Part shown: piece after piece, positions 8,881-31,640 of the stretch
Layout: every line of letters starts with the position of its first letter
Numbering within the stretch: the first letter of the stretch is position 1
NCBI GenBank assembly: GCA_022775905.1
Contig: JALFJX010000037.1
Span: 83-64,082 of the forward strand
Direction: 5' to 3'
Source: Methanobrevibacter sp.
GTDB lineage: Archaea; Methanobacteriota; Methanobacteria; Methanobacteriales; Methanobacteriaceae
Length of the DNA stretch: 64,000 nucleotides
Made by a program: the position numbers and the translations under genes
Notes under the pieces: model-generated
Told to the model about the DNA's origin: nothing
The model's database searches: none
What the model saw: only the letters and a program-made list of their open reading frames with translations

Positions 8881-8943
8881 ACCTAATTTAAACACAACCT
8901 ATATATAATATTTTTTAATATATTATATATAGGGAGTGTTAGA

Positions 8944-9207
8944 TTGGATGATGAAACATTAAAGAAATATGCTTATGTAAACATTTCAAGCTACAGAAAA
9001 AAAGCAGTAAAATCCTTGAATGATGATATGAAAATCCCAACACAGCTTGCAGCAGATACTGGAATTAGAAGAAACCATATCTCCAAAGTACTACGTGAAC
9101 TTAAGGAAAAGGGTGTTGTAGAATGCATCAACGAGGAAGCAAAAAGGGGAAGACTTTATCGTCTGACCAAAGTCGGTGAGGATATTGCCGATAAAATTGA
9201 TGATTGA
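8944..9207 (+). CDS. small winged-helix DNA-binding protein
   Basis: 87 aa with HTH core IPTQLAADTGIRRNHISKVLRELKEKGVVE and wing RGRLYRLTKVG. TTG start 5 nt after a GGGAG RBS. Confidence 0.7.
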   Translation: MDDETLKKYAYVNISSYRKKAVKSLNDDMKIPTQLAADTGIRRNHISKVLRELKEKGVVECINEEAKRGRLYRLTKVGEDIADKIDD

Positions 9208-9908: not shown

Positions 9909-10706
9909 ATGGATTTGATGAACAATTCAAAACTTGAAGAACTGATAAAAAGATTTAATGCAGAACCGAACAGCCAGACACAGAATGAATTCCTAAGTGA
10001 ACTTGTACGCTCACAGTTGTTTTTAACTGTTGTTATGAGTGAAGAAATGTTTGATGAAATCAAGAAATTTGAAGCAGGTGAAGTTCAAACATTTGATGAG
10101 GAAGTGGGATTCAGCATCAACTACCTGACAGGTGAAGGCGGCAAAAAGGCAGTGCCACTTTTTACAGACGCCAAACTCATGGATGAAACAGATATTGAAA
10201 GCTCTGCTATTGTTCTTCAAATGAGTCATCTTGCAGGCATGCTAAAACAGTCAAATGGAAAATATTCAGATATCCTGATAAATCCATTCACCGGTTTGGA
10301 AATAGGAATGCCCGTTGATGTGTTCATAAGCCTGTTTGAAGTGAATCACAATGAAGACTTGACAAATATGATTCTGGATCTTTTACATGAAAGCTCAGTT
10401 GAACTTGAAAAGGAAACAGTATTCTTCTCAAGAAGCGACAGCGATCACATGAAACAGAGTGCAGTTGATGGGGTTTTCACACCAAAATTGCCGTTTAATG
10501 TAAGTTCAAGGGATAGTGAAGAGGATTTGAAGTATTTGAATATTCTGATGATGCCTGAATCTTCAAAGATATTGGACATTGGTGATGAACTGTCAAAGTA
10601 TTTCCTGGACATTTTCATTGCACCTGGAAGTGAATTCGAGTTTGTTGAGGATATTGATGAGTTTACTTCAGTTTGGAAATGTGTCAGGCAGCCGTTTTAC
10701 GATTGA
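9909..10706 (+). CDS. SseB-like family protein (unknown function)
   Basis: 265 aa. It has a hydrophobic strand QLFLTVVM and the segments GGKKAVPLFTDAKLMDE and ILINPF. It shares the (V/T)PLFTD and (I/L)NP pattern with the ORF at 26607. The SseB assignment is from memory of the family pattern. Confidence 0.5.
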   Translation: MDLMNNSKLEELIKRFNAEPNSQTQNEFLSELVRSQLFLTVVMSEEMFDEIKKFEAGEVQTFDEEVGFSINYLTGEGGKKAVPLFTDAKLMDETDIESSAIVLQMSHLAGMLKQSNGKYSDILINPFTGLEIGMPVDVFISLFEVNHNEDLTNMILDLLHESSVELEKETVFFSRSDSDHMKQSAVDGVFTPKLPFNVSSRDSEEDLKYLNILMMPESSKILDIGDELSKYFLDIFIAPGSEFEFVEDIDEFTSVWKCVRQPFYD

Positions 10707-10757: not shown

Positions 10758-11689
10758 ATGCAATTAGGTAATTTACAAAGAGTAAGGGATTTGCGTTCTG
10801 TTTGGAAAAATGAAGCTTATGATTTTACAAAATGGCTTGCAAAAGAAGAAAATTTAGCTATTTTAAGTAATGAAATTGGTATTGAAATGGAACTTATTGA
10901 TACTGAGGTATCTACAGGTTCTTTTAGTGTTGATATTCTTGCTGTAGAATCAGGCAGTGATAATAAGATTGTAATTGAAAATCAGCTTGAAAAAACAGAT
11001 CATGATCATTTGGGAAAAATTATTACTTATGCATCAGGGCATGATGCTAAAACAATTATCTGGTAGTTAAAGATGTTAGAGAAGAGCATCGTCAAGCTGT
11101 TGATTGGTTAAATGAACATACAGACAGTGAAATTAACATATTTTTATGTAGAATAGAATTATGGAAAATTGATGACTCAAAATTAGCTCCAAAATTTCAG
11201 ATTGTTTCAAGTCCTAATAATTGGTCTAAAATAATTAGAATAACTGGTAATGATAAGTATTCAGCTACTCAAATGTTACAGTATAATTATTGGGAACAGT
11301 TAACCTATGAAATTGATGAAAATTTCCCTGAATTAATTTCTCATAGTCCATATCCTCAAAATTATTACAATTTATCTTTAGAAAAACATTTAGCTCATGT
11401 TTCTTTAGTTATCAATACAGTTAAAAAAAGATTAACAACACAACTTTGGATTGATGATGATAAAGAGTTATTTGATTTTTTATATGAATATAAAAATGAT
11501 ATTGAAGATGAAATTGGTTTTGAGTTAACCTGGGAAAGATTGGATAACAAAAAAGCTTCACGTATTGATATCTATAAAAATTTTGATGTTAAAAAGAATA
11601 AGAATTGGGATGAAGCTATTAAATGGCATTTGGAGATGGCTTGCAAATTCCAGAATGCATTCAATGACAAATTGAAACAATATGAATAA
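10758..11689 (+). pseudogene. DUF4268-type protein with N-terminal PD-(D/E)XK-like nuclease domain, disrupted by one frameshift
   Basis: ORF 10758..11066 ends ...GHDAKTIIW-TAG. Restoring one nt after TGG (about 11061) gives IVKDVREEHRQAVDWLNEHTDSEINIFLCRIELWKIDDSKLAPKFQIVSSPNNW..., which runs straight into ORF 11273..11689. The joined protein matches the very common LEKTDHDHLGK(L/I)ITYA...IIWIVKDV...H family as I remember it. Confidence 0.75.
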
Positions 11690-16929: not shown

Positions 16930-17026
16930 AAAATCATCTAATTATTATTTTATCACATCAATTATAAATAATTTAGATACAATATTATTATACGGAAACA
17001 TAATGATGATTTTATGGAGTCATATC

Positions 17027-18511
17027 ATGAATAAAACATTTTTATCTAAATCAAGATATTGTCAATGCGTACAGTGTGAAAAGATTCTCTGGTTAAATGA
17101 ATACTGCTCAAATGGTTCAGCAGTTGAGGATAATGAAGCTATTTTTGAAACCGGGCGAAAAGTGGGCGAACTTGCAAAAGGACTATTTGGTGATTATGAG
17201 GATGTCAAATATGATAAAAGAAGCAATATGATTAAAAAAACAGATGATTTGCTTCAAAACAAGCCAAATATCATAACTGAAGCATCATTTAGTTTTGATA
17301 ATAATTTCTGCAGTGTTGATATTCTAAAGAATGATGTTGATGGTGTGGAAATATATGAAGTTAAAAGCTCTACTAAAGTCAAGGATATTTACATTGATGA
17401 TGTCGCATACCAGTATTTCGTCTTGTCCAATGTAGGATTAAATGTAAAAAAAGCATGTATTGTCTATATAAACAATGAATATGTCAGAAACGGGGATTTG
17501 GATATGACCCAATTGTTTAAGATTGATGATCTGACTGCTGAGGTTCTAGAAAAACAGGATGAAATCAGAAACAATATTTACATGATCAATGAGCTGATGG
17601 AAACATATGATGAAAACAATGAACCTGTTAAGGAAATAGGAAGATTCTGTTTTGATCCATATTTATGTGATTTCTGGGACTATTGTACAAGGGATTTACC
17701 GAAACCTAACGTTTTTGACATTAGTGGAATGCAGACCAAATCTAAATTCAAACAGTATAATGAGGGTAATATTTCATTTGAAGATTTGGCAAATGAAAAA
17801 CTCAATAAAAAATACTTGGAGCAGATTGATTTTGAATTAAACGACAGGGAACCTAAAATTGTAAATGAAGCAGTAAAAGATGTACTGGACTCTCTTAATT
17901 ATCCATTGTATTTCATTGACTATGAAAGCTGCAATTTTGCAATTCCAGAATTTGATGGAACAAAACCCTATCAGCAAATCCCTTTCCAGTACTCCTTGCA
18001 TATCATCAATGAGAATGGTGAAGTTGAACATAGGGAATTTTTGGCAGAAGCCGATGATACAAACATCATTAGGCACTTTGCAGAAAGCATGATTGAAGAC
18101 ATGCCTGAAGACGGCAGTGTCATTGTCTATAACAAAGCGTTTGAAGCTACCCGTAATAAGGAAATTGGAAAAATGTATCCTGATTTAAATGATGAAATGG
18201 AAAGATTCAACAGTAATATGGTTGATTTGATGATTCCATTTAGAAATAGGGATTACTATACAAAAGAAATGAAAGGATCTTATTCAATCAAATATGTGCT
18301 GCCTGCATTGTATCCGAATGACCCTGATTTGGATTACACTCAATTATCCGGAGTACATAATGGTGGTGAAGCATCAAATGCATTCCTAAATCTGAAAAAT
18401 CAAACACTTGAAGAACAACAAAAGACTAGAAATGATTTGCTTAAATATTGTGAACTTGACACTTGGGCTATGGTAAAAATATGGGAAAAATTCAAAGAAG
18501 TGTTAATCTAA
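17027..18511 (+). CDS. DUF2779-like dual nuclease (RecB/Cas4-like PD-(D/E)XK domain with Cys cluster plus DEDD/RNase-H-like exonuclease domain)
   Basis: The N-terminal half has Cys clusters (CQCVQC and CFDPYLCDFWDYC) around a D..EIYEVKSS core. The C-terminal half has YFIDYES and YCELDTWAM exonuclease-like motifs. Start chosen at ATG 17027 (MNKTFLSKSRY), with GGAG 7 nt upstream. The track start is 17003. Confidence 0.75.
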   Translation: MNKTFLSKSRYCQCVQCEKILWLNEYCSNGSAVEDNEAIFETGRKVGELAKGLFGDYEDVKYDKRSNMIKKTDDLLQNKPNIITEASFSFDNNFCSVDILKNDVDGVEIYEVKSSTKVKDIYIDDVAYQYFVLSNVGLNVKKACIVYINNEYVRNGDLDMTQLFKIDDLTAEVLEKQDEIRNNIYMINELMETYDENNEPVKEIGRFCFDPYLCDFWDYCTRDLPKPNVFDISGMQTKSKFKQYNEGNISFEDLANEKLNKKYLEQIDFELNDREPKIVNEAVKDVLDSLNYPLYFIDYESCNFAIPEFDGTKPYQQIPFQYSLHIINENGEVEHREFLAEADDTNIIRHFAESMIEDMPEDGSVIVYNKAFEATRNKEIGKMYPDLNDEMERFNSNMVDLMIPFRNRDYYTKEMKGSYSIKYVLPALYPNDPDLDYTQLSGVHNGGEASNAFLNLKNQTLEEQQKTRNDLLKYCELDTWAMVKIWEKFKEVLI

Positions 18512-20351: not shown

Positions 20352-20639
20352 ATGACAACAAGATTGGAACTTTTTAGAAAACGAATGGAGCCTTCAGAAA
20401 AATTGTATACAAGTGAAATTTTAGATTTCACTGAGAAATTCGATGAATTGGGTGAAATGACATTAATAGAAGATCCTGACATAGATACACAGGAGTACAT
20501 CTACCAATTTGAAAAATTAAATGGAACTACTGAAGAAGCCTTGGATAAAATTCTTATTGAAATATGCAATCATATGGATAAGTTCACTAAGAATAATGGA
20601 ATTGAACAATTTGATCAATATGTTTGTATTTGGATTTAA
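20352..20639 (+). CDS. hypothetical small acidic protein
   Basis: 95-aa ORF with no motif recognised. Confidence 0.45.
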   Translation: MTTRLELFRKRMEPSEKLYTSEILDFTEKFDELGEMTLIEDPDIDTQEYIYQFEKLNGTTEEALDKILIEICNHMDKFTKNNGIEQFDQYVCIWI

Positions 20640-20889: not shown

Positions 20890-22785
20890 ATGATGGACTG
20901 GCAATATAGTAATTATTCAAAAGTAAATCCTAAAGCAAGGGAAAATTTCCCATTTGAAAATCCCCGCGATGATCAGCTTGAGACAATCTCTGAAATTATG
21001 GATGCAATTAATCAGGGCTATAAGTATATAGTACTTGAAGCAGGAACCGGTACAGGTAAATCCGCAATTGCAGCAACATTAGCCAATATGTCAGAATCAT
21101 CATACATTTTAACCGTCACCAAACAACTCCAGGAACAGTATTTAAGGGATTTCAATGATTTCAAAGTGGTTAAGGGAAGATCAAACTTCCAATGCCAGAA
21201 TTACATAAATCAATCCTGCAAGGAAGGCAAATGCCTGATTGAAGGATATGACTGCAAATTCTCTTTAAAAAACAGGGAAAATGAAATAAGAAAAGACAAT
21301 ACCTGTCCATATTATTATCAGAAATATTTAGCGTTAAATACAAAAACAGTCATTTCCAATTACTATTACATGTTCCTGGAGCTCAATTACGTCAAGGATT
21401 TTCAGAAGAGAAATCTGCTGATTTTTGATGAAGCACATAACCTGGAGTCAACATTAATGGATGAATTGACTCTTGAATTCTCCAAAAGCGACCTTGAAGA
21501 ATATATCAATTACAAATTGACATATGATAAGATTGAAGAATTATACAATCCTCATTATTCAAAATGGATTAAATTCATCAATGAGATTAAGGAAGGATAC
21601 CAGGAAGAATTGGATAAACTTGAAAGCTTAAATAAAGTAGAGCTTGGAGAAAAAATAGCTTTCATCAAACATCAAATCAATGACTGCAGCAGGTTTATTG
21701 ACCATTTGATACATGACCCTGAAACATGGATTTTTGACTGGGATGATGATTATCAGCTGGCACAGTTTAAACCCTTGAAAATTGACAATTACGCTAAAAA
21801 TACATTATTCGATTATGCTGATGTATGTGTATTCATGAGTGCAACAATCCTTGACTGGGAACTGTTTTCCAAATGGCTTGGAATACCTCGTGATGAGATA
21901 TATGCAATAAGGAGAAAAAGCCCATTTGACATTAAAAACAATCCTATTACTGCATTTGACGAGTATAATTTATCAAGAAACTTCATCAGGGCCAATGCTC
22001 CCAAAAGCATCAGGTCAATTAATGAAATCCTCGAAAAGCACAAAAATGAGAAAGGAATAATTCATACTGTCAGCATGAAATGCAGAGATTTCCTGATGGA
22101 CAATATTGACAATTCCCGACTGATAACTCATGATAGCAAAAACAGAACTGAAATTCTTGATGAATTCATCGCTTCAGATGAACCTCTGGTTTTAATATCC
22201 CCATCTATGGGTGAGGGTGTTGATCTTCCAGGAGACTTATGTCGTTTTCAGATAATCTACAAACTGCCGTTTCCCGATTGGGGAGACAAGCAGATAAATC
22301 AGAGAACAGAAATCGACAGGGAATGGTACGACTACAAAACCTGCCTTAACATTGTCCAGACACATGGAAGGGGAATGAGGCACAATGAGGATTATTGCCA
22401 CACTTATGTTATTGACAGTCGATTCAAGACATATATAAAGGAAACATTTCCAAACAACTTCCTTCCAGATACATTTAAAGAGGCAATTGAAGGAAATGAA
22501 CTCGATTTAAAAGAAAAGAATAGATTAATGGAAATCGGCGATTCATACATAAAAAACAATGACTATGAATCAGGAATCATGTTTTTTAAGGAGTTATTGG
22601 ATAATGAACTCTTTCAAAATGACCTATATCCATATCTCTGTTTATCAAAAATGTTTCATGAAACTGGGATGTATGAAAATGAAGTTCAAATAATCATGCA
22701 ATTCTTAAGCACCGGCGCTAAATCCAGTCAATTAACTAAAAGATTAGAGAAACTTGCAGCTATGGGGTACTTTGATTTTGCATAA
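20890..22785 (+). CDS. XPD/Rad3/DinG-family Fe-S helicase with C-terminal TPR-like tail
   Basis: Walker A EAGTGTGKS and DEAH box LIFDEAHNLE, with a Cys-rich insert between them (FQCQNY..C..C..C...TCPYY). Motif VI is VQTHGRGMRH. The last about 90 aa are helical repeats (..YESGIMFFKELLDNELFQNDLYPYLCL..). Confidence 0.85.
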   Translation: MMDWQYSNYSKVNPKARENFPFENPRDDQLETISEIMDAINQGYKYIVLEAGTGTGKSAIAATLANMSESSYILTVTKQLQEQYLRDFNDFKVVKGRSNFQCQNYINQSCKEGKCLIEGYDCKFSLKNRENEIRKDNTCPYYYQKYLALNTKTVISNYYYMFLELNYVKDFQKRNLLIFDEAHNLESTLMDELTLEFSKSDLEEYINYKLTYDKIEELYNPHYSKWIKFINEIKEGYQEELDKLESLNKVELGEKIAFIKHQINDCSRFIDHLIHDPETWIFDWDDDYQLAQFKPLKIDNYAKNTLFDYADVCVFMSATILDWELFSKWLGIPRDEIYAIRRKSPFDIKNNPITAFDEYNLSRNFIRANAPKSIRSINEILEKHKNEKGIIHTVSMKCRDFLMDNIDNSRLITHDSKNRTEILDEFIASDEPLVLISPSMGEGVDLPGDLCRFQIIYKLPFPDWGDKQINQRTEIDREWYDYKTCLNIVQTHGRGMRHNEDYCHTYVIDSRFKTYIKETFPNNFLPDTFKEAIEGNELDLKEKNRLMEIGDSYIKNNDYESGIMFFKELLDNELFQNDLYPYLCLSKMFHETGMYENEVQIIMQFLSTGAKSSQLTKRLEKLAAMGYFDFA

Positions 22786-22854
22786 AATATTAACACAACT
22801 TATATTAACTTTTTAAACACAAATATATTATCAAGAAAGTTAAAGGTATTTTCT

Positions 22855-24303
22855 ATGTTGGAGTGGACCATTTGTAAAAACTGCGGTACAATATTGGATA
22901 ATTCTCAAAATAAATGTCCAAATTGTCAAGGGGAAGTCGAAAAAGCAAATATTGATTATCTAAAAGATTATCTAAACAATTTGAACTTTCTTTTAAAGAC
23001 ATTGAATATTTTTACTCCATACTGCAGTTCCACAAAGGACATGTCAAATATCACACTGGAAAGCATCATAATCGATGATTTGTTTAAATACTTTTCATAT
23101 CTTGGTTTGGGAGATGGCAAAGTCACAGACAATGAAGTTGAATTCATAAATTCACTTTTGAACACCAATTTTTCAAAAGAAGATATTACAGCTTTGGCTG
23201 ATGCTAAAATCGATACACTGCCATATTCCTTCAAATGCATTGAAGAAGTGGATGAGTACTGCCAAAACTTTGATATGCATCAGCTTAACTCCTGCAATGA
23301 ACTGTTCAACTGCTTTAAGATATTTGGAAAATTCTTCATAACTGTCGATAATGAGCTTGACGAGGATGTACTGAAAATCTATTCCAATTATATTACAAAG
23401 CTGGAAGATTCTCTTAAAAGCAAAAACGTTACAATCAAACCGATTGACCGTCCAAATAACAAAACAATGCCTGAAGAGGAAAAACATTCATTTGATGAAT
23501 ATATGGATGAACTGAATAAGCTTGTTGGCCTTGAAAAGGTTAAAAAGGATGTCAATTCATTAATCAATCTGGTTCAAATCAGAAAGCTAAGAGCAGAACG
23601 TGGAATCAAACAGCCGCCGATGAGCCTTCATCTGGTTTTTTCAGGAAATCCCGGAACCGGAAAGACAACAGTTGCTAGACTGTTGTCCAAAATATATCAC
23701 GAAATCGGTTTATTGTCAAAGGGACATCTCATTGAAACCGACCGCTCAGGTCTTGTTGGCGGATATGTCGGACAGACTGCAATTAAAACCCAGGAAGTCA
23801 TCCAGTCTGCACTTGGTGGAATACTGTTTATCGATGAAGCTTACAGCTTAACATCAAAAAGTGAAAACGACTATGGAAACGAAGCAATAGACACACTTCT
23901 AAAGGCAATGGAAGACCACCGTGACGATTTGATTGTAATTGTAGCAGGATATCCTGCATTGATGGAAAAGTTCCTATACTCAAATCCCGGCCTTGAGTCA
24001 AGATTCAATAAATTCATCTGTTTTGAGGATTACAATGAAGATGAACTCTACAATATATTCTGGCTCATGTGTGAAGACTCATCACTAACGTTGGATGCTC
24101 CTGGAGATAAGTATATAAATGACTACTTTAAAAGAATATATGAAAATAGATCACCTAATTTTGCTAACGGAAGGGCTGTTAGAAATCTATTTGAAGAAGT
24201 GATAACTAATCAGGCTAACAGATTAGCTGCAAAAGACAATATAACTGACGAAGAATTAAATACTTTAACATACGAAGATTTTTTGGTTGATGAAAATGAG
24301 TGA
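22855..24303 (+). CDS. Zn-ribbon / TerB-like / AAA+ ATPase (CbbX-SpoVK-type)
   Basis: N-terminal CKNCG...CPNC ribbon and a TerB-like segment YLGLGDGKVTDNEVEFINSLL. The AAA+ core has Walker A GNPGTGKTT and Walker B ILFIDEAYSL, plus the C-terminal NGRAVRNLFE typical of the CbbX/SpoVK clade. Confidence 0.85.
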   Translation: MLEWTICKNCGTILDNSQNKCPNCQGEVEKANIDYLKDYLNNLNFLLKTLNIFTPYCSSTKDMSNITLESIIIDDLFKYFSYLGLGDGKVTDNEVEFINSLLNTNFSKEDITALADAKIDTLPYSFKCIEEVDEYCQNFDMHQLNSCNELFNCFKIFGKFFITVDNELDEDVLKIYSNYITKLEDSLKSKNVTIKPIDRPNNKTMPEEEKHSFDEYMDELNKLVGLEKVKKDVNSLINLVQIRKLRAERGIKQPPMSLHLVFSGNPGTGKTTVARLLSKIYHEIGLLSKGHLIETDRSGLVGGYVGQTAIKTQEVIQSALGGILFIDEAYSLTSKSENDYGNEAIDTLLKAMEDHRDDLIVIVAGYPALMEKFLYSNPGLESRFNKFICFEDYNEDELYNIFWLMCEDSSLTLDAPGDKYINDYFKRIYENRSPNFANGRAVRNLFEEVITNQANRLAAKDNITDEELNTLTYEDFLVDENE

Positions 24304-25369
24304 AAAAATTTGTACAAACTGCGGAAATAAAGTGGATGGAAATGTCAACTTCTGTCCCAAATGCAAATCACAATCATTTAGAAACGTTAATGAGCTTGCA
24401 AAGCCAAAAGCTACCTTTGTTCAGAATTTACTTTACAAATATCAGAACAATTATTATGTATTATCAAAAGCTAAGGTTGGAGCATTAATTACATTTATCG
24501 TATTTGGAACTTTAGCATTTCAAACTCCTGGAACAATATTAATTTCATTGATTATAGCATTTTTAGTTTATGCAATGGGTTATGCTCTTAGAAGAGCTTT
24601 AATGGATAAGAATAGCAGATCACAGATTTACTTTAAGAATAATAATTTAGGTTTAATTCAAGATTTAATACATTTATTCGGATATTGGCAGGATAGGGAA
24701 AATGGTGAATATAAAATATCAAAAACTAAACTAGTTTCACTTATTATCTTCTTTATCTTTGCGTGTGTTGGTATTGCACAAGTGCCGGGAAATCCATTTG
24801 CATTTTTCGTTTTCGGTTTTTTCTTTTCAGCACCAGCATTTGCCGTTGGATATGCAATCCACAGATTCCTCACTTCAAGACCTGTTAAAAAGGTAGCTAA
24901 AAAGGCAGAACCTTTAATTGAAAAAACAACCGGAATCAAGGTTGAAAAGCCAAAAACATCTTCAAATACATATAATGTACATGAATTTGACAAATACAGG
25001 AAAAAATTAAGTGAATTATCCATAATGTATGAAATCAAAGAGAAAAACGCAAGAAGTTTAATTGAAAAACGTTTCACACCACCTCAATTGACTTATGACA
25101 GATTCATTGCATCTGTTGACAACTCAACCAAGATGTTTAACATGCACTCAGATGCTGTTTCAAACATTATTGGGCTTGCTTCACAGGACAGTGCAAAAAT
25201 AGATCATGAAATCAACAACAGACTTGACATTCTCGAGTCACTTGTCAAAAAGATGGATGAACTTGTAAATGAACTTGTATTGAGCTTAAATGAAAACGAA
25301 GAGGAAGACAATGTCTCCAATGTCTTTGAGGATATGGATAGCTTAATTGATTCTGTTAAAAATTATTGA
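24290..25369 (+). CDS. Zn-ribbon membrane protein (4 TM, duplicated 2-TM unit) with long helical C-terminal domain
   Basis: CTNCG...CPKC ribbon, then two copies of a 2-TM unit ending (A/V)(M/V)GYA(L/I)(R/H)R(A/F)L, then an about 130-aa helical tail. The start (ATG 24290 or 24296) overlaps the stop of the AAA+ gene (24301-24303). Confidence 0.7.
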   Translation: MKMSEKICTNCGNKVDGNVNFCPKCKSQSFRNVNELAKPKATFVQNLLYKYQNNYYVLSKAKVGALITFIVFGTLAFQTPGTILISLIIAFLVYAMGYALRRALMDKNSRSQIYFKNNNLGLIQDLIHLFGYWQDRENGEYKISKTKLVSLIIFFIFACVGIAQVPGNPFAFFVFGFFFSAPAFAVGYAIHRFLTSRPVKKVAKKAEPLIEKTTGIKVEKPKTSSNTYNVHEFDKYRKKLSELSIMYEIKEKNARSLIEKRFTPPQLTYDRFIASVDNSTKMFNMHSDAVSNIIGLASQDSAKIDHEINNRLDILESLVKKMDELVNELVLSLNENEEEDNVSNVFEDMDSLIDSVKNY

Positions 25370-25375
25370 TGAAAA

Positions 25376-25972
25376 ATGTTTAAAAAAGTTCTGATTGCAT
25401 TGATTGCAGTATTTGTATTGATGAGTGCAGCAAGTGCTGTTGACTCATCAAACTGGAATACAACCACTGTCGGTTATGAGACATTCAAGATACCTCCGCA
25501 GTACAATAACCCATACATCAGCGACTTTGACATGTATGAGTTTGATGAGAATATTGATGTTTTCACACTCAGATATGTAAATCCCAATCTTATGAGTTTA
25601 TACGGCTATTTCATAAGCCAGTATCATGCAAAAAAGGTCAATGTATCAGGACATGATGCAGTTCACTTCACATACTATGACAGACATGACGGGACAAACA
25701 ATTCAATTTTATGGTTTTCAGCAGGAGATGAATTCTATTATATCAACTGGATTGGACATAATATAACCTCAGACATTAAGGAAATAGTCAAAAGCGGATC
25801 AAAATCAGCATACACTCATAAGGAATTCTACAGTACATTAAATGAAGAATACAATAACTATGAGATTGTACATGCAATAGAATCACAGCCTTCAGATTAT
25901 CCTCAAAAGGAATCCTCACGTACCTTTGTATCATTCGGAACAAACGGTTTTGGAATTGGAAAAATATTTTAG
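25376..25972 (+). CDS. secreted protein (signal peptide), unknown function
   Basis: 198 aa with N-terminal LIALIAVFVLMSAASAVDSS. The gene starts 6 nt after the previous gene. Confidence 0.65.
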   Translation: MFKKVLIALIAVFVLMSAASAVDSSNWNTTTVGYETFKIPPQYNNPYISDFDMYEFDENIDVFTLRYVNPNLMSLYGYFISQYHAKKVNVSGHDAVHFTYYDRHDGTNNSILWFSAGDEFYYINWIGHNITSDIKEIVKSGSKSAYTHKEFYSTLNEEYNNYEIVHAIESQPSDYPQKESSRTFVSFGTNGFGIGKIF

Positions 25973-25980
25973 GTGTTTAA

Positions 25981-26593
25981 ATGGATGATGAAATCCCAAT
26001 TAAAAGAAAAATAGAAAAAAAGAGACATACACTTTTAGACAGGATTAAAACAACAAAGGAATTTGTTGAAGACACTGCAATCAATGTGGTTACAGCACCT
26101 AAGGAAATAGTTGATGATGTGCTCAGGCAAAAAGAAAACAATATGCCTCAGAAAGGCTTTGAAGAGTCTTTAAAATATATCATGGAGCATAATAAGTCAA
26201 AAGTTGAATTTCCTGTTGACTCCAAATCAAAAGAAAAGATATCCAAAATGCTTTCACCTGAAATAGTCGGAAGTGCAGGAGGCTTGATTGGAGCTGCTGC
26301 AACCGTAGGACTTATAGGTTCAACACTTGGTGCCGGTGCATTGATCGGTGGAGTAATAGCTAAAAACTCCAAAGACATGTCCTGGGTTGGGGCGGAACTT
26401 GTAATCCTTGAGGAGGAACTTGTCATTTCAAAAATTCACACTTCATTTCGATGAAATAAAGCACGTAAGCGTTGACAACGGACTGGTTGTTCTTACACTG
26501 AAGGATGATGCATTGGCATTCAGAACATATAATGCAAAGGATCTTAAAACTGTCATCGTTGAGCGAATGAATAAATATTATAACAATAATTAA
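25981..26593 (+). pseudogene. Gly-rich TM protein with PH-like tail, split by a +1 frameshift in an A5 run
   Basis: ORF 25981..26454 ends ..AELVILEEELVISKIHTSFR. Dropping one A from AAAAA at 26430-26434 gives ..LVISKFTLHFDEIKHVSVDNGLVVLTLKDDALAFRTYNAKDL.., which is ORF 26408..26593. This could be a real pseudogene or a homopolymer sequencing error. Confidence 0.5.
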
Positions 26594-26606
26594 CAGATTA
26601 CCATTA

Positions 26607-27500
26607 ATGACTAATCACAAACACCTACGTACTGTTATTGAAGACATATATTCAAATGGAAATAAACTAACTGAAGAACTCACTGCTCGTCTGATACATG
26701 AATTCAGATACTCCAACTTGTATATTCCCGCCAAAAGGGAAAATGATACCTTAAATTTCATTATCTATGAAGATGGTGATACAAAATTCACTCCATTGTT
26801 TACGGATATGGATGAATTCAGGAAGTTCTATAAAAATGATGAATCCATTCAGATTTTACAGAACCCGTTTGAATTATACCAAAATGTCCTCAAAACAACA
26901 GATATTGGAGGTTATGTCTTAAATCCTGCTTCTGAAAAGTATCTCTTCCAGAAGGAATTCATATTGGCAATAGACAATATTCCAAAAACTAATTTTTACA
27001 CTACAAACCCGTATTCAGAAGAGGAATTATTGGCTTTAAAAAAATCAGCTGACAATAAAGATCTTGAAGAGTTCATTTCAAACAGGGCCAATATCGGTGA
27101 CTTTGAAGGATTGTTTGAGAAGATGGCGCAATCACAGCTGCTTGCACTGATGCTTTCTGACTTGAAGCTCAAAAATGAGATGACTTCACTTAAGGAAAGC
27201 GGACCTGTCGCTTCAATGTATACTGACAAGGTTGGAGGAATCTATGCAACAGTATTTACCTCAGAAGAAAAGATGAATGCGGTAAACACCAAAAAGCACA
27301 AGTATTCCCAACTGGTAAATCTTGCAACTCTTGTCAATTTCATCCTGACTGAGGATATGGACGGTCTTATTTTAAATCCTGAAACTGATAATGTTCTGGT
27401 TCCAAGAACTACACTTCTCAGATATTCTCTTGGCTTTGAGATGTATGCAAATGATGAAAGGTTATCAGAAGCCATGTTTTATCTCTTTAAAATAATATAA
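26607..27500 (+). CDS. SseB-like family protein (paralogue-type of 9909..10706)
   Basis: 297 aa carrying SNLYIPAKRENDTLNFIIYEDGDTKFTPLFTDMDEFRKF and GGYVLNPASEKY. This is the same pattern as the 9909 ORF. Confidence 0.5.
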   Translation: MTNHKHLRTVIEDIYSNGNKLTEELTARLIHEFRYSNLYIPAKRENDTLNFIIYEDGDTKFTPLFTDMDEFRKFYKNDESIQILQNPFELYQNVLKTTDIGGYVLNPASEKYLFQKEFILAIDNIPKTNFYTTNPYSEEELLALKKSADNKDLEEFISNRANIGDFEGLFEKMAQSQLLALMLSDLKLKNEMTSLKESGPVASMYTDKVGGIYATVFTSEEKMNAVNTKKHKYSQLVNLATLVNFILTEDMDGLILNPETDNVLVPRTTLLRYSLGFEMYANDERLSEAMFYLFKII

Positions 27501-27534
27501 AATTTTAATAATCATATGTTATATACTCATTATT

Positions 27535-28146
27535 ATGTCAGAATTATCAGAATTGATTCAAATTAATAAAAACATTGAAAAGCAGAATGAGGAAATCATT
27601 CGTCTTTTAAAAATAATCGCTAATGAGAAGAAAGAGGAACCTCCTAAACCGCAAATTGATTTAGGTGAATTGTACTTGTCAAATGAAGCGCTCAAAAAGG
27701 CACTTGGAGAGGAAGACAAAGAACCTGAAGTAGTTGAAAATACCTGGAGAATAGGATCTTTGCTTGACACTTCACTTGATGTTGGTGAAGTGCATTTCCT
27801 TGAAGGTTCAGACATCTTCAAAATATCTATTAAAAATAATGAAACTATAATCGATAATTTAACTGGTGATGGTGAACCTAATACATTTGCTTTTGAGGAA
27901 ATGATTGCAAATGAATCAGTCAATCAAAATAAAAGTTTGGAAGATGGTACAGTAATACTAAGTAATGAACATTCACAAAACTTGCCTGAAACTTTAAAAA
28001 TTTGTATTGAACAGGGAGCTAAAAAAGCATACATGCCAATTTTTACAGCAACACAGCTTGTTGGAGCACCAAATTCCCTAATGGAACTTGTGAAACTTGA
28101 CTTTTATAAAAATGAAGATAACTTAATTGAAAAATTATTTAAATAG
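27535..28146 (+). CDS. coiled-coil protein with degenerate Lon-protease-like C-terminal domain
   Basis: 203 aa. The N-terminal about 55 aa are coiled-coil/charged. The C-terminus (GSLLDTSLDVGEVHFLEG...LTGDG...CIEQGAKKAYMPIFTATQLVGAPNSLMELVKLDFYKNEDNLIEKL) resembles the S16 Lon/BrxL-type proteolytic-domain outline but lacks an obvious Ser-Lys dyad. The CDS call is solid and the domain call is weak. Confidence 0.45.
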   Translation: MSELSELIQINKNIEKQNEEIIRLLKIIANEKKEEPPKPQIDLGELYLSNEALKKALGEEDKEPEVVENTWRIGSLLDTSLDVGEVHFLEGSDIFKISIKNNETIIDNLTGDGEPNTFAFEEMIANESVNQNKSLEDGTVILSNEHSQNLPETLKICIEQGAKKAYMPIFTATQLVGAPNSLMELVKLDFYKNEDNLIEKLFK

Positions 28147-28154
28147 GTGATTTA

Positions 28155-28484
28155 ATGTCAAAATTCTGTCCAAAATGTGGTGAAAAATTAACAGATGAAG
28201 CTAAATTCTGCAAAAACTGCGGAGCAAGTCTGGAAAACAGACAAACAAATACTCAAAATTTCCAGCAATCAAACCAGTATTATCAAGTTCCAAAAGTTGA
28301 AAATGAACACAAAGCCGCAACAATCATAGGTTATATCTGTGCTGTTTTAATACCTCTGTTTGGATTGATTTTTGGTATTTATTTGGTAACCCGTAATGAC
28401 TCTGATAAAGCAAACCGTCACGGAAAGATTATAATTGGTGTTTCTGTAATAATTTGGATCATATCATTCTTATTAATGAGATGA
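28155..28484 (+). CDS. Zn-ribbon membrane protein (2 TM)
   Basis: 109 aa with a CPKCGEKL...CKNCGASL ribbon, a Q/N-rich linker and two TM helices. Confidence 0.75.
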   Translation: MSKFCPKCGEKLTDEAKFCKNCGASLENRQTNTQNFQQSNQYYQVPKVENEHKAATIIGYICAVLIPLFGLIFGIYLVTRNDSDKANRHGKIIIGVSVIIWIISFLLMR

Positions 28485-28491
28485 ATATTTT

Positions 28492-29676
28492 ATGTATAGT
28501 GGATTATCAGATTATTTAAGATTAGACAGCAAAAAAAGAAGGGCAATCGATGAATTAATCCGTTCTATTGAAAATGAAGTCCTTTTTGAATCCAGTGAGT
28601 TTGTCCCTGAATTATCAGATTCAGAATATTATTCACATGAAGATTGTAATGAGGATGCTTGCATTTGTCTTGAAGAACCAGAAATTCCAAAGACAAAATA
28701 CTGTCCAAAATGCCATAGGCAATATCCTGAAATGGAAAATTTCTGTTCTGAATGTCTGATTCGTCTTAAAAGAATTGATGATATCACAAAAGTTAGGGAT
28801 ATTCAATCAAAACCAAGTTTTGAGGTTGAAGGATTTAAATCCTATACAACATTTGAGGAGATTTTCACTCCTGAAAACATGGAAAAAATCCAAAATTTTA
28901 AATTTACACCTCAAAAATACAATAATATAATAAAAAACATCAAAATAGCTGCTTTAAGTGAATTCGACAATCTGGTCAGGTCAAATGAAATGGTTCTTGA
29001 CTACTTAAGCATATTGGATAAAGTGCTTCTGTTTACAAAATCATTTGTTGAAGTCGACTATAAATCATACGGCCAGGAATTGGGTGTATTCACATTTAAT
29101 AAAATAGATATTGATGACAGACAGGTTGATGGACTTCAAATAACCACATTGACTCATGAACTTTCACACTTTTTAATAAAAGAGATATTGTCTCAAATCA
29201 TTTGCAGCATACTTGACTGCAATAAAAATTCATTGATAGATGCAATTTCCACATTCATATTGACATATTCGCCGTTAAATAGGCTGATTGATGAATATTC
29301 AGCGCATACTGTTGAAGGAAGATTCACTGCATACGGATATCAGGATTACTCTTCATTCATCCAGATACAGGAATCCCTTAAAGGTGAAATGCCTGAAGAG
29401 GAAATAGAGATAGCAAAATCCATTGGAAACACATTTTCCATAACAATCAAGGACATTCTTGAATCATATCTTGATGATGATTTAAGGCGTGAAATCAAAG
29501 ACCAGTTCCTCAATGATACAAGAGACAGTCCAAAATATGAAATGCTTGCATATGAAAACTGCAAGCAGCTTACAAAAAAAGGTTTTATGCAGGCAATATG
29601 GCTTATATTAAGCGAAGGATTTGAAGTTGCAAACAGACATATTGAAAAACTAGAATCATACGAAAAGGCTTTTTAA
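28492..29676 (+). CDS. Zn-ribbon protein with HExxH metallopeptidase-like motif
   Basis: 394 aa with a CPKCHRQ...CSEC ribbon at residues about 71-88 and HELSH within ITTLTHELSHFLIKE. No TM helix. Confidence 0.6.
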   Translation: MYSGLSDYLRLDSKKRRAIDELIRSIENEVLFESSEFVPELSDSEYYSHEDCNEDACICLEEPEIPKTKYCPKCHRQYPEMENFCSECLIRLKRIDDITKVRDIQSKPSFEVEGFKSYTTFEEIFTPENMEKIQNFKFTPQKYNNIIKNIKIAALSEFDNLVRSNEMVLDYLSILDKVLLFTKSFVEVDYKSYGQELGVFTFNKIDIDDRQVDGLQITTLTHELSHFLIKEILSQIICSILDCNKNSLIDAISTFILTYSPLNRLIDEYSAHTVEGRFTAYGYQDYSSFIQIQESLKGEMPEEEIEIAKSIGNTFSITIKDILESYLDDDLRREIKDQFLNDTRDSPKYEMLAYENCKQLTKKGFMQAIWLILSEGFEVANRHIEKLESYEKAF

Positions 29677-29690
29677 AATTAAATACAAAA

Positions 29691-29990
29691 ATGATTACCA
29701 TGAATATTAAGGAAAGAATTATACAATTACACTTTGAGCAAACAGGAAACACCGTTGAAATCAGTGATGTGCTCTTGACCATCATTTCAAAATTTCAATT
29801 ATTTGAACCATGCCAATATTTATCTGAAGATGACGACTGGGTAAATGTATCTTTGGTTTCTATTGAAGATGAAAAGTCTTCACAGGCAATGTCAATTCTT
29901 AAAAAGGAAATAACTGCATTCGGTGTATTCAAAAAAGATGATGATGAAGAAATTACCGCACCTGCAGTATCACAGGACTTGTACCAATGA
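29691..29990 (+). CDS. hypothetical small acidic protein
   Basis: 99-aa ORF. Its stop overlaps the next start in ATGA (29987-29990). Confidence 0.5.
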   Translation: MITMNIKERIIQLHFEQTGNTVEISDVLLTIISKFQLFEPCQYLSEDDDWVNVSLVSIEDEKSSQAMSILKKEITAFGVFKKDDDEEITAPAVSQDLYQ

Positions 29991-30280
29991 AGGAAATATT
30001 CATAGAAGCTGATTTTGATGTAGATGAGATTACATCAAAAATTAACAGTTTAATGTCAAAATGGTCCATTCAGCTTCTGGATATCAATGGACCCAATTGG
30101 ATCGTATTTGACTATGATATGGAAATCAAATATGTATTCATATTCAATGTTGATTTTAGTGACATTGAAACACGTATAAAACTAGAAGATTTGAAATTGA
30201 ATGTTATCCATCATATTGAAGGCTTAAAAGACGAGACTACATATAGGGATAACTTGATTAATGGTGTTTTTTTCGATTAA
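29987..30280 (+). CDS. hypothetical small acidic protein
   Basis: 97-aa ORF, translationally coupled to the previous ORF. Last gene of the same-strand cluster. Confidence 0.5.
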   Translation: MKEIFIEADFDVDEITSKINSLMSKWSIQLLDINGPNWIVFDYDMEIKYVFIFNVDFSDIETRIKLEDLKLNVIHHIEGLKDETTYRDNLINGVFFD

Positions 30281-30725: not shown

Positions 30726-31640
30726 CTATTCAAATTCAGGGTGTTCTGCTTTAATTTCATTGTAGATTTTTTCTTTTACTTTATTACGGTCAGCATCAAA
30801 GTCAACGATTATATCAAAATTGATTAATTTCTTGTCTTCCTCTACATGAATCCGTGAATCTCAAGTACTTCCTCATATTTTGATGCAATTTCATATAGTC
30901 GTCACGAATTTCATTATAATTATCATTTTTAGCATAGATTCCAATAGTTAATCCTATTGAAAATTCATCATATATTTTATAGGAAATATTCCTGGTTAAT
31001 TTTTGAATGTCATGTGCGGTATATCATCATCAACCTCAATATGGACTGATCCATGCATATCTTCAGGTCCGTAGTTGTGAAGGCTTAAATCATATGCTCC
31101 ATAAACTCCAGGAACCTCACATATTGATTCTTTTATTTTACGGGAAAGTTCCGGGTCAACCCTTGCACCAATCATGCTGTCAACGGTTTCCCTGAGCATA
31201 TCAATACTTGCCTTGATGATAACAATGGAGATAATAACACCTAAAATTCCTTCAAGGGAAATGTGGAAGAATATGGATACGATAGCTGCGATTAATGTTG
31301 AAAGGGATAAAATTGCATCAAAGAATGCATCGCTTCCGGAAGCTACAAGTGCCTGTGAATTGATTTCTTCACCAACATTTTTAACGTATTTTCCAAGTCC
31401 CAATTTTACCAATACTGCAACTGCAACGATGACAAGTGAAACTGTAGTGTATGCAGTAACATCAGGGTTAAATATCTTTGGCCATGATTCCATAAATGCA
31501 GTAACTCCCGCCCAAAGCACAATAGCTGCAATGATTACTGATGCAAAGTATTCAATACGTCCATATCCATAAGGATGGTTCTTGTCAGGTGCCTTACCTG
31601 CAAGCTTTGTTCCGATAATAGTAATAATTATTATTTTTGA
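30726..31640 (-). pseudogene. cation diffusion facilitator (CDF) transporter, 5'-truncated with at least 3 frameshifts
   Basis: The open frame starts without ATG at ..IIGTKLAGKAPDKNHPYGYGRIEYFASVIIAAIVLWAG.. (CDF TM2-3 signature), so TM1 is missing. ORF 30996..31520 carries the rest of the TMD and ..VPGVYGAYDLSLHNYGPEDMHGSVHIEVDD... The C-terminal domain continues in other frames (HDIQKLTRNISYKIYDEFSIGLTIGIYAKND.., LYEIASKYEEVLEIHGF, VEEDKKLINFDIIVDFDADRNKVKEKIYNEIKAEHPEFE-stop at 30726). Confidence 0.75.

Follow-up and report, generated by a model that had tools for sequence, protein, structure and literature searches.

The stretch of DNA analysed here (64,000 nucleotides of contig JALFJX010000037.1, from a Methanobrevibacter archaeon, with a G+C content of ~30%), called the window below, contains a tight row of eleven open reading frames (ORFs), g1 to g11, at positions 20890-30280. 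Comparison between species places seven or eight of them (g2, g3, g6, g7, g8, g9, g10 and g11) in a conserved core, and the cluster is fixed at one syntenic site in ~30 species-level genomes of rumen-type Methanobrevibacter. The kinds of parts are known; what is new is the predicted zincin family, represented by g9, at the centre of the cluster. The cluster would most likely serve to cleave proteins in a regulated way, linked to DNA defence, and we tentatively propose, as one possible reading, that the core is a membrane-tethered, ATP-driven AAA+/zincin proteolytic switch specific to these archaea. An initial annotation of the same DNA had suggested an undescribed conflict or stress system. 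This stands in so far as nothing named matches and the links to conflict biology are real, but the block is neither an eleven-gene unit nor a mobile island, and a single operon is improbable. The genes are:

20890-22785, plus strand: g1, XPD/DinG-type Fe-S helicase with a tetratricopeptide repeat (TPR)-like tail, accessory
22855-24303, plus strand: g2, C4 zinc ribbon, conserved domain of ~180 amino acids (aa), AAA+ ATPase of the CbbX/SpoVK/EccA clade
24290-25369, plus strand: g3, zinc ribbon, two repeats of a motif and a transmembrane hairpin, conserved helical tail; the first 14 nt overlap the end of g2
25376-25972, plus strand: g4, lineage-specific protein with an N-terminal signal or anchor
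25981-26593, plus strand: g5, pseudogene of a glycine-zipper membrane protein, in two frames (25981-26454 and 26408-26593)
26607-27500, plus strand: g6, SseB family, core
27535-28146, plus strand: g7, near-invariant N-terminal helix, acidic linker, Lon/BrxL-like C-terminal subdomain
28155-28484, plus strand: g8, zinc ribbon (Zn_Ribbon_1, E 4.9e-10) and two transmembrane segments (57-75 and 90-108)
28492-29676, plus strand: g9, N-terminal helix, disordered linker, C4 ribbon, zincin-like domain (HELSH 222-226, Glu268)
29691-29990, plus strand: g10, small acidic protein, likely start ATG 29700
29987-30280, plus strand: g11, small alpha/beta protein, coupled to g10 by ATGA

The ORF listing bears out the annotated layout, with all eleven ORFs co-directional and successive gaps of 69, -14, 6, 8, 13, 34, 8, 7, 14 and -4 nucleotides (nt). 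The two start/stop overlaps are also there, 14 nt between g2 and g3 (with g3 read from the ATG at 24290) and the ATGA at 29987-29990 between g10 and g11, and both are found in other species. Judged by comparison, all eleven ORFs are genes and not chance reading frames, because orthologues keep an identical order in many other Methanobrevibacter genomes, at 33-88% protein identity. The ratio of nonsynonymous to synonymous substitution rates (dN/dS) is 0.05-0.22 in the six genes tested, with dS near saturation, which indicates purifying selection on all of them. Four of the products carry a C4 zinc ribbon, as annotated: g2 (C7/10/21/24), g3 (C9/12/23/26), g8 (C5/8/19/22) and g9 (C71/74/85/88).

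To map the distribution, a single genome of each GTDB species was scanned with an SseB alignment and exact peptide patterns, which gave 32 loci, all in Methanobrevibacter and mostly in metagenome-assembled genomes (MAGs) from rumen or gut. Because exact peptide patterns were used, absence of the cluster outside Methanobrevibacter is probable and falls short of proof. Comparing all window proteins with the 32 loci by tblastn gives the layout: g2-g3, a variable stretch, g6-g7-g8-g9-g10-g11, and then a fixed flank of a minus-strand gene for 115 aa, a cation-efflux gene and a glutathione peroxidase gene, with Usp also neighbouring the site. Order and strand are the same in all loci seen. Co-localisation was counted within 6 kb of the g9 orthologue in the 28 loci with adequate flanks: g10 and g11 are there in all 28, g6 in 27, g8 in 26, g2 and g7 in 22 each and g3 in 20, and a winged-helix gene was counted in 12, a TPR-HIRAN gene in 10 and g1 in nine. 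Co-localisation in other genomes, which the initial annotation had proposed as a check, was therefore found for most components in many genomes, but not for g1, g4 and g5. The idea of eleven genes as one conserved unit has to be given up, as g1 varies in position (before g2 or between g3 and g6) and is by this comparison an accessory gene outside the core, and g4 and g5 occur in the closest relatives only, with g5 dead.

The content of the slot between g3 and g6 differs between species, and in many of them two winged-helix genes, the second on the opposite strand, are found there together with TPR-HIRAN and an SseB paralogue. A GNAT acetyltransferase gene is sometimes inserted before g10. Three same-species contigs from other samples (L048-L050) have the same eleven genes and the same flanks, and the presence/absence polymorphism between close strains raised in the annotation was not seen, either in these contigs or across the ~30 species. 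It is worth noting that a mobile defence island would look different, with presence and absence among close strains, a changing location and mobility genes: here order and flanks are fixed, g9 is absent from IMG/VR and only the internal slot varies. The block is a fixed feature of the clade that has a hot spot inside it, and not a strain-variable island. The annotation had also named a core syntenic position with a housekeeping role as a sign against a conflict system; the fixed site and the purifying selection are there, but no known housekeeping role is. The cluster seems to be absent from human-gut Methanobrevibacter contigs, where stand-alone paralogues of g9 remain and the other cluster genes do not.

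The ribbon (C71/74/85/88) and the HExxH motif (HELSH at 222-226) of g9 are as annotated, and the protein has no match in Pfam, NCBIfam, PHROG, PADLOC or PDB sequences. There are 122 relatives in 1.8 billion representative proteins and 354 clusters in 5.8 billion, and in the larger search all named members are from Methanobrevibacter. An alignment of 56 sequences keeps His222, Glu223, His226 and Glu268, the last Glu lying 42 residues past the second His. The AlphaFold (AF2) model has a predicted local distance difference test (pLDDT) score of 91.6 and runs from three strands to the HExxH helix and on to a helix bearing the Glu, an order that we read as the zincin/gluzincin layout. A Foldseek search gave no match at E <= 0.001; the best was PprI (8slm, E 0.27, probability 0.51, template modelling (TM) score ~0.2), IrrE (3dte) had E 0.84, and other weak fold matches were to selecase and to viral metallopeptidases, the weak viral matches being mostly metallopeptidases. 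A viral origin of g9 was considered and rejected, as there is no relative in IMG/VR. Going by the model, g9 appears to define a small new zincin family, for which Pfam has no model.

The g9 domain is also found as the C-terminus of longer proteins, in which it follows either HsdR (HSDR_N, SWI2_SNF2 and T1R_D3) with ribbons or McrB-N with or without Mrr-N. The McrB-N fusions are in contigs of 29-31% G+C together with McrB, a LlaJI-type enzyme, two C5 methylases and HsdR, and a DinG-like helicase 38% identical to g1 lies 3.4 kb from them. As far as sequences can tell, the fusions to HsdR and McrB-N/Mrr-N in restriction islands are a real link to conflict biology. Since the domain is fused to both type I and type IV restriction modules, proteolysis is suggested as an output of DNA sensing in these archaea. 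Examples of the fusion proteins are at L038 1413-5144, L051 8001-11207 and L052 8001-10220. Separately, in human-gut and rumen Methanobrevibacter contigs, a g9 paralogue is convergent with a gene for a multi-zinc-ribbon SAP-domain protein of 420-438 aa (L095 9989-12237, L008 814-3031).

A second gene family accompanies g9, and the window has one member of it:

8944-9207, plus strand: winged-helix regulator, 87 aa, outside the cluster; possible satellite, candidate substrate or regulator

Members of the family give weak scores against HTH_45 and TrmB, and the product of 8944-9207 is 54-64% identical to those of the winged-helix genes in the variable slot of other species. A winged-helix gene lies within 6 kb of the g9 paralogue in 17 of the 26 paralogue loci, and in at least four divergent lineages (L036, L117, L122-L132 and others) the distance is 66-238 nt. 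A second, divergent SseB-like gene (265 aa, PF07179, E 6e-17) is found near the winged-helix gene of the window, at 9909-10706.

The ATPase g2 had been annotated as a zinc ribbon, a TerB-like domain and a CbbX/SpoVK-type AAA+ domain. The cysteine motif supports the ribbon, and Pfam and PDB support the AAA+ part, but the TerB-like domain finds no support. The Pfam matches are AAA (PF00004, E 6.7e-18) and AAA_lid_6 (PF17866, E 2.4e-19), the NCBIfam matches are TIGR02881 (E 2.6e-90), TIGR02880 (E 1.7e-74) and TIGR03922 (E 1.4e-73), every one under its cutoff, and the nearest solved structures in a PDB sequence search are CbbX (E 1.7e-60) and EccA1 (E 1.3e-45). The EccA model gives a score of 248 against a cutoff of 467, and the SpoVK and CbbX models score higher. 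By these profiles g2 is a member of the CbbX/SpoVK/EccA clade and not an orthologue, because the equivalog cutoffs of SpoVK, CbbX and EccA are all missed. Walker A and B are intact and the AAA+ part is almost invariant across 20 orthologues, with 61-85% identity among loci. The g2 product has an identical counterpart among metagenomic proteins, and it shares 84% identity with an AAA ATPase from Methanobrevibacter gottschalkii. TerB was rejected: a 15-sequence profile of the N-terminal domain has no match in Pfam or PDB sequences, and the only signal is a weak PADLOC match to PDC-M48B (E 8e-4).

The descriptions of the two membrane ribbon proteins hold, with g3 comprising a zinc ribbon, about four transmembrane segments and a helical tail (transmembrane prediction and orthologue comparison) and g8 a zinc ribbon and two transmembrane segments (Pfam Zn_Ribbon_1 and prediction). 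The tail of g3 (residues ~230-355) weakly matches LXG (PF04740), the N-terminal domain of toxins of the type VII secretion system (T7SS), in six of 20 orthologues (best E 1.2e-5), which is a lead only. The product of g6 is SseB-like, as proposed (PF07179, E 2.5e-17), with 62-87% identity between species and a dN/dS of 0.05-0.09. The degenerate Lon-like domain assigned to g7 is likewise found: residues 106-200 match the PADLOC model of BrxL (E 7.7e-9) and TIGR02653 (E 1.3e-6), and a profile search of PDB reaches BrxL (8eil) at a marginal E of 0.032. No Ser or Lys in this C-terminal domain is invariant or nearly so among 23 orthologues, so that conserved candidates for a Ser-Lys dyad are missing and the domain is probably non-catalytic.

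The two small proteins close the cluster. The likely start of g10 is ATG 29700, because Met4 is invariant in 27 orthologues; in L048 the gene is called at 96 aa. Like g2 and g6, g11 ranks with the best-conserved genes of the cluster (66-88% identical between species); an alignment of 27 locus orthologues has 29 invariant columns, and one of 40 database homologues has 38. Its homologues form 698 clusters, all named members being Methanobrevibacter, and its product occurs unchanged in a Methanobrevibacter sp. MAG. The AF2 model of g11 (pLDDT 86) has a beta-alpha-beta3-alpha fold; Foldseek gave no match at E <= 0.001, and the best PDB match, the N-domain of FtsH (E 0.004, TM 0.34-0.47), is not significant. 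A paralogous relation of g10 and g11 was rejected, with an hhalign probability of 0.3%. Apart from the marginal match of g7 to BrxL, PDB sequence searches with g9, g7, g11, g6 and g3 gave nothing significant.

The tight spacing had been taken to imply one operon, which is now doubtful because a conserved promoter-like motif precedes g2, in the 69-nt spacer between g1 and g2:

22792-22805, plus strand: promoter-like motif AACACAACTTATAT

The consensus is AACACAACTTAT(A/T)T. It precedes g2 in 13 of the 28 g2-carrying loci used for this count, whichever gene is upstream (with or without g1), and is mostly 46-50 nt (range 26-50) from the end of the motif to the g2 start codon, with an AGGT ribosome-binding sequence downstream of it. 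By its sequence it looks like an archaeal TATA-type promoter, and therefore g2 likely begins its own transcript and a single transcript is disfavoured. A second copy stands at 8891-8904, before the winged-helix gene; the two matches in the window are not significant by themselves, as 15 of 100 shuffles reach two. An operator shared by g2 and the winged-helix gene was considered as well and is unsupported, since the motif is upstream of just one of 53 winged-helix genes. A scan for sigma-70 promoters and terminators gave counts equal to those of shuffles and is uninformative for an archaeal host.

From the observed gene order, conservation, domain identities, fusions and adjacencies we infer contacts, a trigger, a substrate and an outcome for the proposed switch. 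In this model g3 and g8 would place their zinc ribbons on the cytoplasmic face of the membrane, and the AAA+ protein g2 would dock on the helical tail of g3 and act as an unfoldase or remodeller. The zincin g9 would be the catalytic output, gated by g6, g7 (as a ring domain), g10 and g11 as adaptors or inhibitors. If ImmA/ImmR and IrrE/DdrO are a guide, the likely substrate would be the small winged-helix regulator found with g9 paralogues, and its cleavage would switch transcription. Exchangeable DNA-facing accessories may collect in the g3-g6 slot and in the flanks, such as the g1 helicase, TPR-HIRAN, an extra SseB and the glycine-zipper protein. Given these DNA-facing genes in slot and flanks, foreign or damaged DNA is suggested as the trigger.

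The proteolytic switch is favoured because the core genes stay together near g9 in most of the 28 loci, because g2 has the intact ATPase motifs of the substrate-threading CbbX clade, and because the g9 model is zincin-like with its best weak folds in IrrE/PprI, selecase and viral metallopeptidases. It also draws on the winged-helix genes that adjoin g9 paralogues and occupy the slot of many clusters, on the fusions of the g9 domain to HsdR and McrB-N/Mrr-N in restriction-modification (R-M) islands with a g1-like helicase, on the recurrence of the g2/g3 and g10/g11 overlaps in other species, and on purifying selection in the tested genes.

Several known systems share single features with the cluster. 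Literature searches found no earlier description of it, and, in keeping with the earlier statement that no named system has this composition, a PADLOC scan of ten of the cluster proteins gave only component-level matches (DinG for g1, the C-terminus of BrxL for g7, a generic AAA+ for g2). ImmA/ImmR of ICEBs1 and IrrE (PprI)/DdrO of Deinococcus are switches made of a COG2856 zincin and a helix-turn-helix (HTH) repressor, and they offer the nearest working analogy. Alike are the paralogues of g9, where an HExxH zincin gene adjoins a gene for a small DNA-binding regulator, the weak and non-significant best PDB folds of g9 (PprI and IrrE), and the association of the g9 domain with DNA-sensing modules. 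However, g9 has no sequence match to Peptidase_M78, although HExxH and the downstream Glu are present, the partner of its family is a winged-helix protein (TrmB/HTH_45-like) and not XRE, g9 itself has a zinc ribbon and sits among an AAA+ protein, SseB, a Lon-like domain and membrane proteins, and in the window the regulator gene is 19 kb away. In a similar way, residues ~209-476 of g2 align end to end with CbbX and comprise AAA and AAA_lid_6, but g2 differs from CbbX, SpoVK and EccA in falling below the NCBIfam equivalog cutoffs, in its unique N-terminus (zinc ribbon and 180-aa domain), in a stop that overlaps the start of a membrane-protein gene, and in its archaeal host. The hallmark of BREX is a full-length BrxL (N-domain, AAA+ and Lon-like domain) with the PglX methyltransferase, PglZ and BrxC. 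Here the C-terminal ~100 aa of g7 match the last part of the Lon-like domain of BrxL, the sole PDB family touched, but the AAA+/MCM part is missing, ~100 of the 680 residues of BrxL are covered (profile positions 574-675), and among ten cluster proteins (g11 excluded) PADLOC found BrxL and a weak BrxH but no PglX, PglZ or BrxC match.

The helicase core of g1, with its Fe-S cluster domain, aligns fully with DinG/Csf4 of type IV-A CRISPR systems and with DinG-like phage helicases, but the Csf4 model TIGR03117 scores 21.6 bits against a cutoff of 400, and g1 has an extra TPR-like tail and does not belong to the core. Type IV-A systems also have the effector genes Csf1/2/3/5 and a CRISPR array beside the helicase, but PADLOC matched none of the remaining type IV Cas models, and a tandem-repeat scan of the window found no array. 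Shango consists of the TerB-domain protein SngA, the SngB ATPase and the SngC helicase; no Sng model in PADLOC matched at E <= 0.1, and the N-terminal profile of g2 has no TerB match. FtsH is a membrane AAA+ zincin protease, and the cluster combines a membrane anchor, an AAA+ protein and an HExxH protease as well, but on separate polypeptides, with an AAA+ of another clade and a g9 without an M41 match. The similarity to type VII (ESX) secretion lies in the sub-cutoff EccA-like score of g2 and the weak LXG match in some g3 orthologues, and Pfam and NCBIfam found no EccC/EssC ATPase, WXG100, EccB/D/E or Ess membrane parts among the eleven products. As for Lon protease, g7 has no conserved candidates for the Ser-Lys dyad and covers only a C-terminal stretch of the protease domain. 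Membership of BREX, type IV CRISPR, Shango, T7SS, FtsH or Lon is not supported; for M78 there are the weak folds, HExxH and the downstream Glu, and no sequence match.

Several points weigh against the proteolytic switch, which rests on sequence and predicted structure. The best g9 fold match, to PprI/IrrE, is far from significance (E 0.27, TM ~0.2) and Peptidase_M78 in Pfam does not match; the winged-helix gene of the window lies at a distance and outside the cluster; and many of the loci with an adjacent winged-helix gene are repeat samples of the same human-gut species. One locus, L014, has g6-g11 and no g2 or g3 within 10 kb, and the two halves may therefore be separable. We know of no activity for SseB, g10 or g11. 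Fixed synteny, strong conservation and a single-genus range fit lineage-specific housekeeping equally well. Such a housekeeping system would be a split functional analogue of FtsH or LonB for membrane proteolysis, serving membrane-protein quality control or envelope biogenesis with no role in conflict. The fixed site beside the cation-efflux gene, glutathione peroxidase and Usp, the almost invariant AAA+ part, the low dN/dS and the presence of the cluster in every same-species contig examined would all suit it, as would the cell-wall genes downstream and the non-significant FtsH N-domain match of g11. Yet the fold search with g9 did not return FtsH or M41, g2 belongs to the CbbX clade and not to FtsH or Lon, R-M islands contain fusions of the g9 domain with HsdR and McrB-N, the slot holds DNA-facing accessory genes, and human-gut contigs seem to do without the cluster and keep g9 paralogues only, so that we regard housekeeping as unlikely. 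Whether the genes form one system at all has to be asked too, since the g1 cassette, the g2-g3 pair and g6-g11 could simply be neighbours at an insertion-tolerant site. The motif in front of g2, the changing position or absence of g1, the species-dependent slot and the arrangement in L014 all point that way, but no more than 6 kb separates g2-g3 from g6-g11 in 20-22 of the 28 loci over a deep divergence (AAA+ 61-85%) and despite turnover of the slot, zinc ribbons are common to four products, and order and strand are constant in all loci seen; we doubt this explanation about as much as the housekeeping one. The proteolytic switch itself stays tentative because fixed synteny and strong conservation keep these two rivals alive.

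A further rival is a DNA-damage or replication-stress module, an archaeal counterpart of IrrE/DdrO. Its zincin would cleave the winged-helix repressor upon damage, and the DinG/XPD-type helicase, the HIRAN proteins and the RadA/BrxL-like ring domain would sense DNA ends or forks. This would account for the weak top folds of g9, the winged-helix genes adjoining its paralogues, the TPR-HIRAN gene in the slot in 10 of 28 loci, the DinG-like g1 and the putative Mre11/Rad50 genes, named from sequence, immediately upstream in L014, L016 and L024. It leaves the two membrane proteins and SseB with no role, however, and its helicase and HIRAN genes are accessory and frequently absent; moreover, what the g1 family most resembles are phage helicases and the DinG model associated with type IV CRISPR, and the g9 fusions are in restriction islands and not in repair loci. 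We hold the damage module to be somewhat less probable again. An apparatus for protein export or membrane insertion would use an EccA-like AAA+ protein, an SseB chaperone (a role taken from the family name), a conduit of ribbon proteins, and g4, g5 or g9 as cargo. The match of g2 to the T7SS EccA model (E 1.4e-73) and to EccA1 in PDB, the weak LXG match of the g3 tail in six of 20 orthologues, the signal sequence of g4 and the glycine-zipper membrane protein g5 could be read in this direction, but an EccA score of 248 is far under the cutoff of 467 and below those of SpoVK and CbbX, no FtsK/EssC-type ATPase, WXG100 or other T7SS part is among the eleven products, g4 and g5 are lineage-specific with g5 decayed, and the LXG match is weak and falls at the opposite end of the protein from the one expected. 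Export is very improbable.

In the rumen, methane is produced mainly by Methanobrevibacter, whose virus-resistance biology is to our knowledge almost unexplored. The cluster adds a predicted zinc-protease family without a Pfam model. We know of no LexA in archaea, and if the zincin/winged-helix pair works like ImmA/ImmR or IrrE/DdrO, it would be a candidate for a damage- or invader-triggered archaeal switch. It would go further to see the core as an archaeal machine for immunity or surveillance that has so far escaped notice, in which a membrane-anchored CbbX-type AAA+ protein and the new zincin, whose domain Methanobrevibacter also joins to HsdR and McrB-N readers, turn detection of foreign DNA into proteolytic signalling or cell suicide, and we consider this unlikely; if it were true, SseB, the BrxL-like ring domain and g10/g11 would have new regulatory roles, and interchangeable sensors would dock at the g3-g6 slot as a built-in site. 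There is also a caution for genome scans, as a compact block of unusual genes can turn out to be a locus that is fixed in its genus and has a variable slot, and not a mobile island.

Among the accessory genes, g1 is an XPD/DinG-type Fe-S helicase with a TPR-like tail, a description on which motifs, Pfam and the TPR consensus agree with the initial annotation. It shows the features of a superfamily 2 Fe-S helicase, with helicase motifs (GTGKS at 54, DEAH at 180), a four-Cys cluster between Walker A and B (Cys 102/110/115/122) and Helicase_C_2 (PF13307, E 2.5e-21), as well as DEAD_2 (PF06733, E 7e-9) and ResIII; tail residues 536-614 match the consensus TPR (E 7.5e-5). Its matches to PADLOC typeIV_DinG (PDLC01439) and phrog_2488 have E values of 3e-80 and 8e-108, and relatives in IMG/VR are 31-34% identical. 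The hydrophobic N-terminal signal noted in g4 is seen at residues 5-23, and by tblastn of the window proteins against the loci g4 has orthologues only in L005, L006, L007 and L033. In the same four loci and in strain YE315 g5 is found. It is frameshifted, as annotated, by a 2-bp deletion relative to YE315, where it is intact (202 aa, L001 12510-13118); the deletion is common to four same-species contigs (the window and L048-L050), and L049 and L050 have additional 1-bp deletions.

Upstream of the cluster is a further small gene:

20352-20639, plus strand: g0d, small acidic ORF of 95 aa, no family match

In L001 and L007 the g1 orthologue is immediately preceded by a g0d orthologue of 61-68% identity, and a copy of 60% identity is found in L019, where no g1 orthologue was found. 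The surroundings had been described as rich in decayed R-M and nuclease genes, which is borne out only in part. Decay is seen in a split DUF4268 gene and in the truncated cation-efflux gene, but a DUF2779 protein with a weak Cas4-like nuclease N-terminus (17003-18511, upstream of the cluster and flanked by TPR genes) is intact, and no R-M gene is among the ORFs scanned. The split gene appears to consist of 10758-11066 and 11273-11689; the second piece is DUF4268 (E 6e-26), and the first has no family match, with a PD-(D/E)xK-like N-terminal part read from the sequence by eye. An Rfam scan of the window found no RNA genes.

In other species the upstream neighbours differ. The putative Mre11 and Rad50 genes lie at 5650-9563 in L014, where they abut g6, at 1864-5776 in L016 and at 428-3190 in L024. 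Three species (L008 3616-5223, L011 and L029) have a gene pair upstream of the cluster, a P-loop ATPase-motif gene that is OLD/AAA_15-like by eye and a partner of 269-286 aa. On the other side, the cation-efflux (CDF) gene at 30996-31520, on the minus strand, is truncated to 174 aa, compared with 363-388 aa in other species, and the same-species contigs L048-L050 have the same truncation. Further downstream, 35392-56000 holds an extended series of genes for LicD, acyltransferase, GT2 and CDP-glycerol glycerophosphotransferase, a teichoic-acid-type wall chemistry that is notable for an archaeon.

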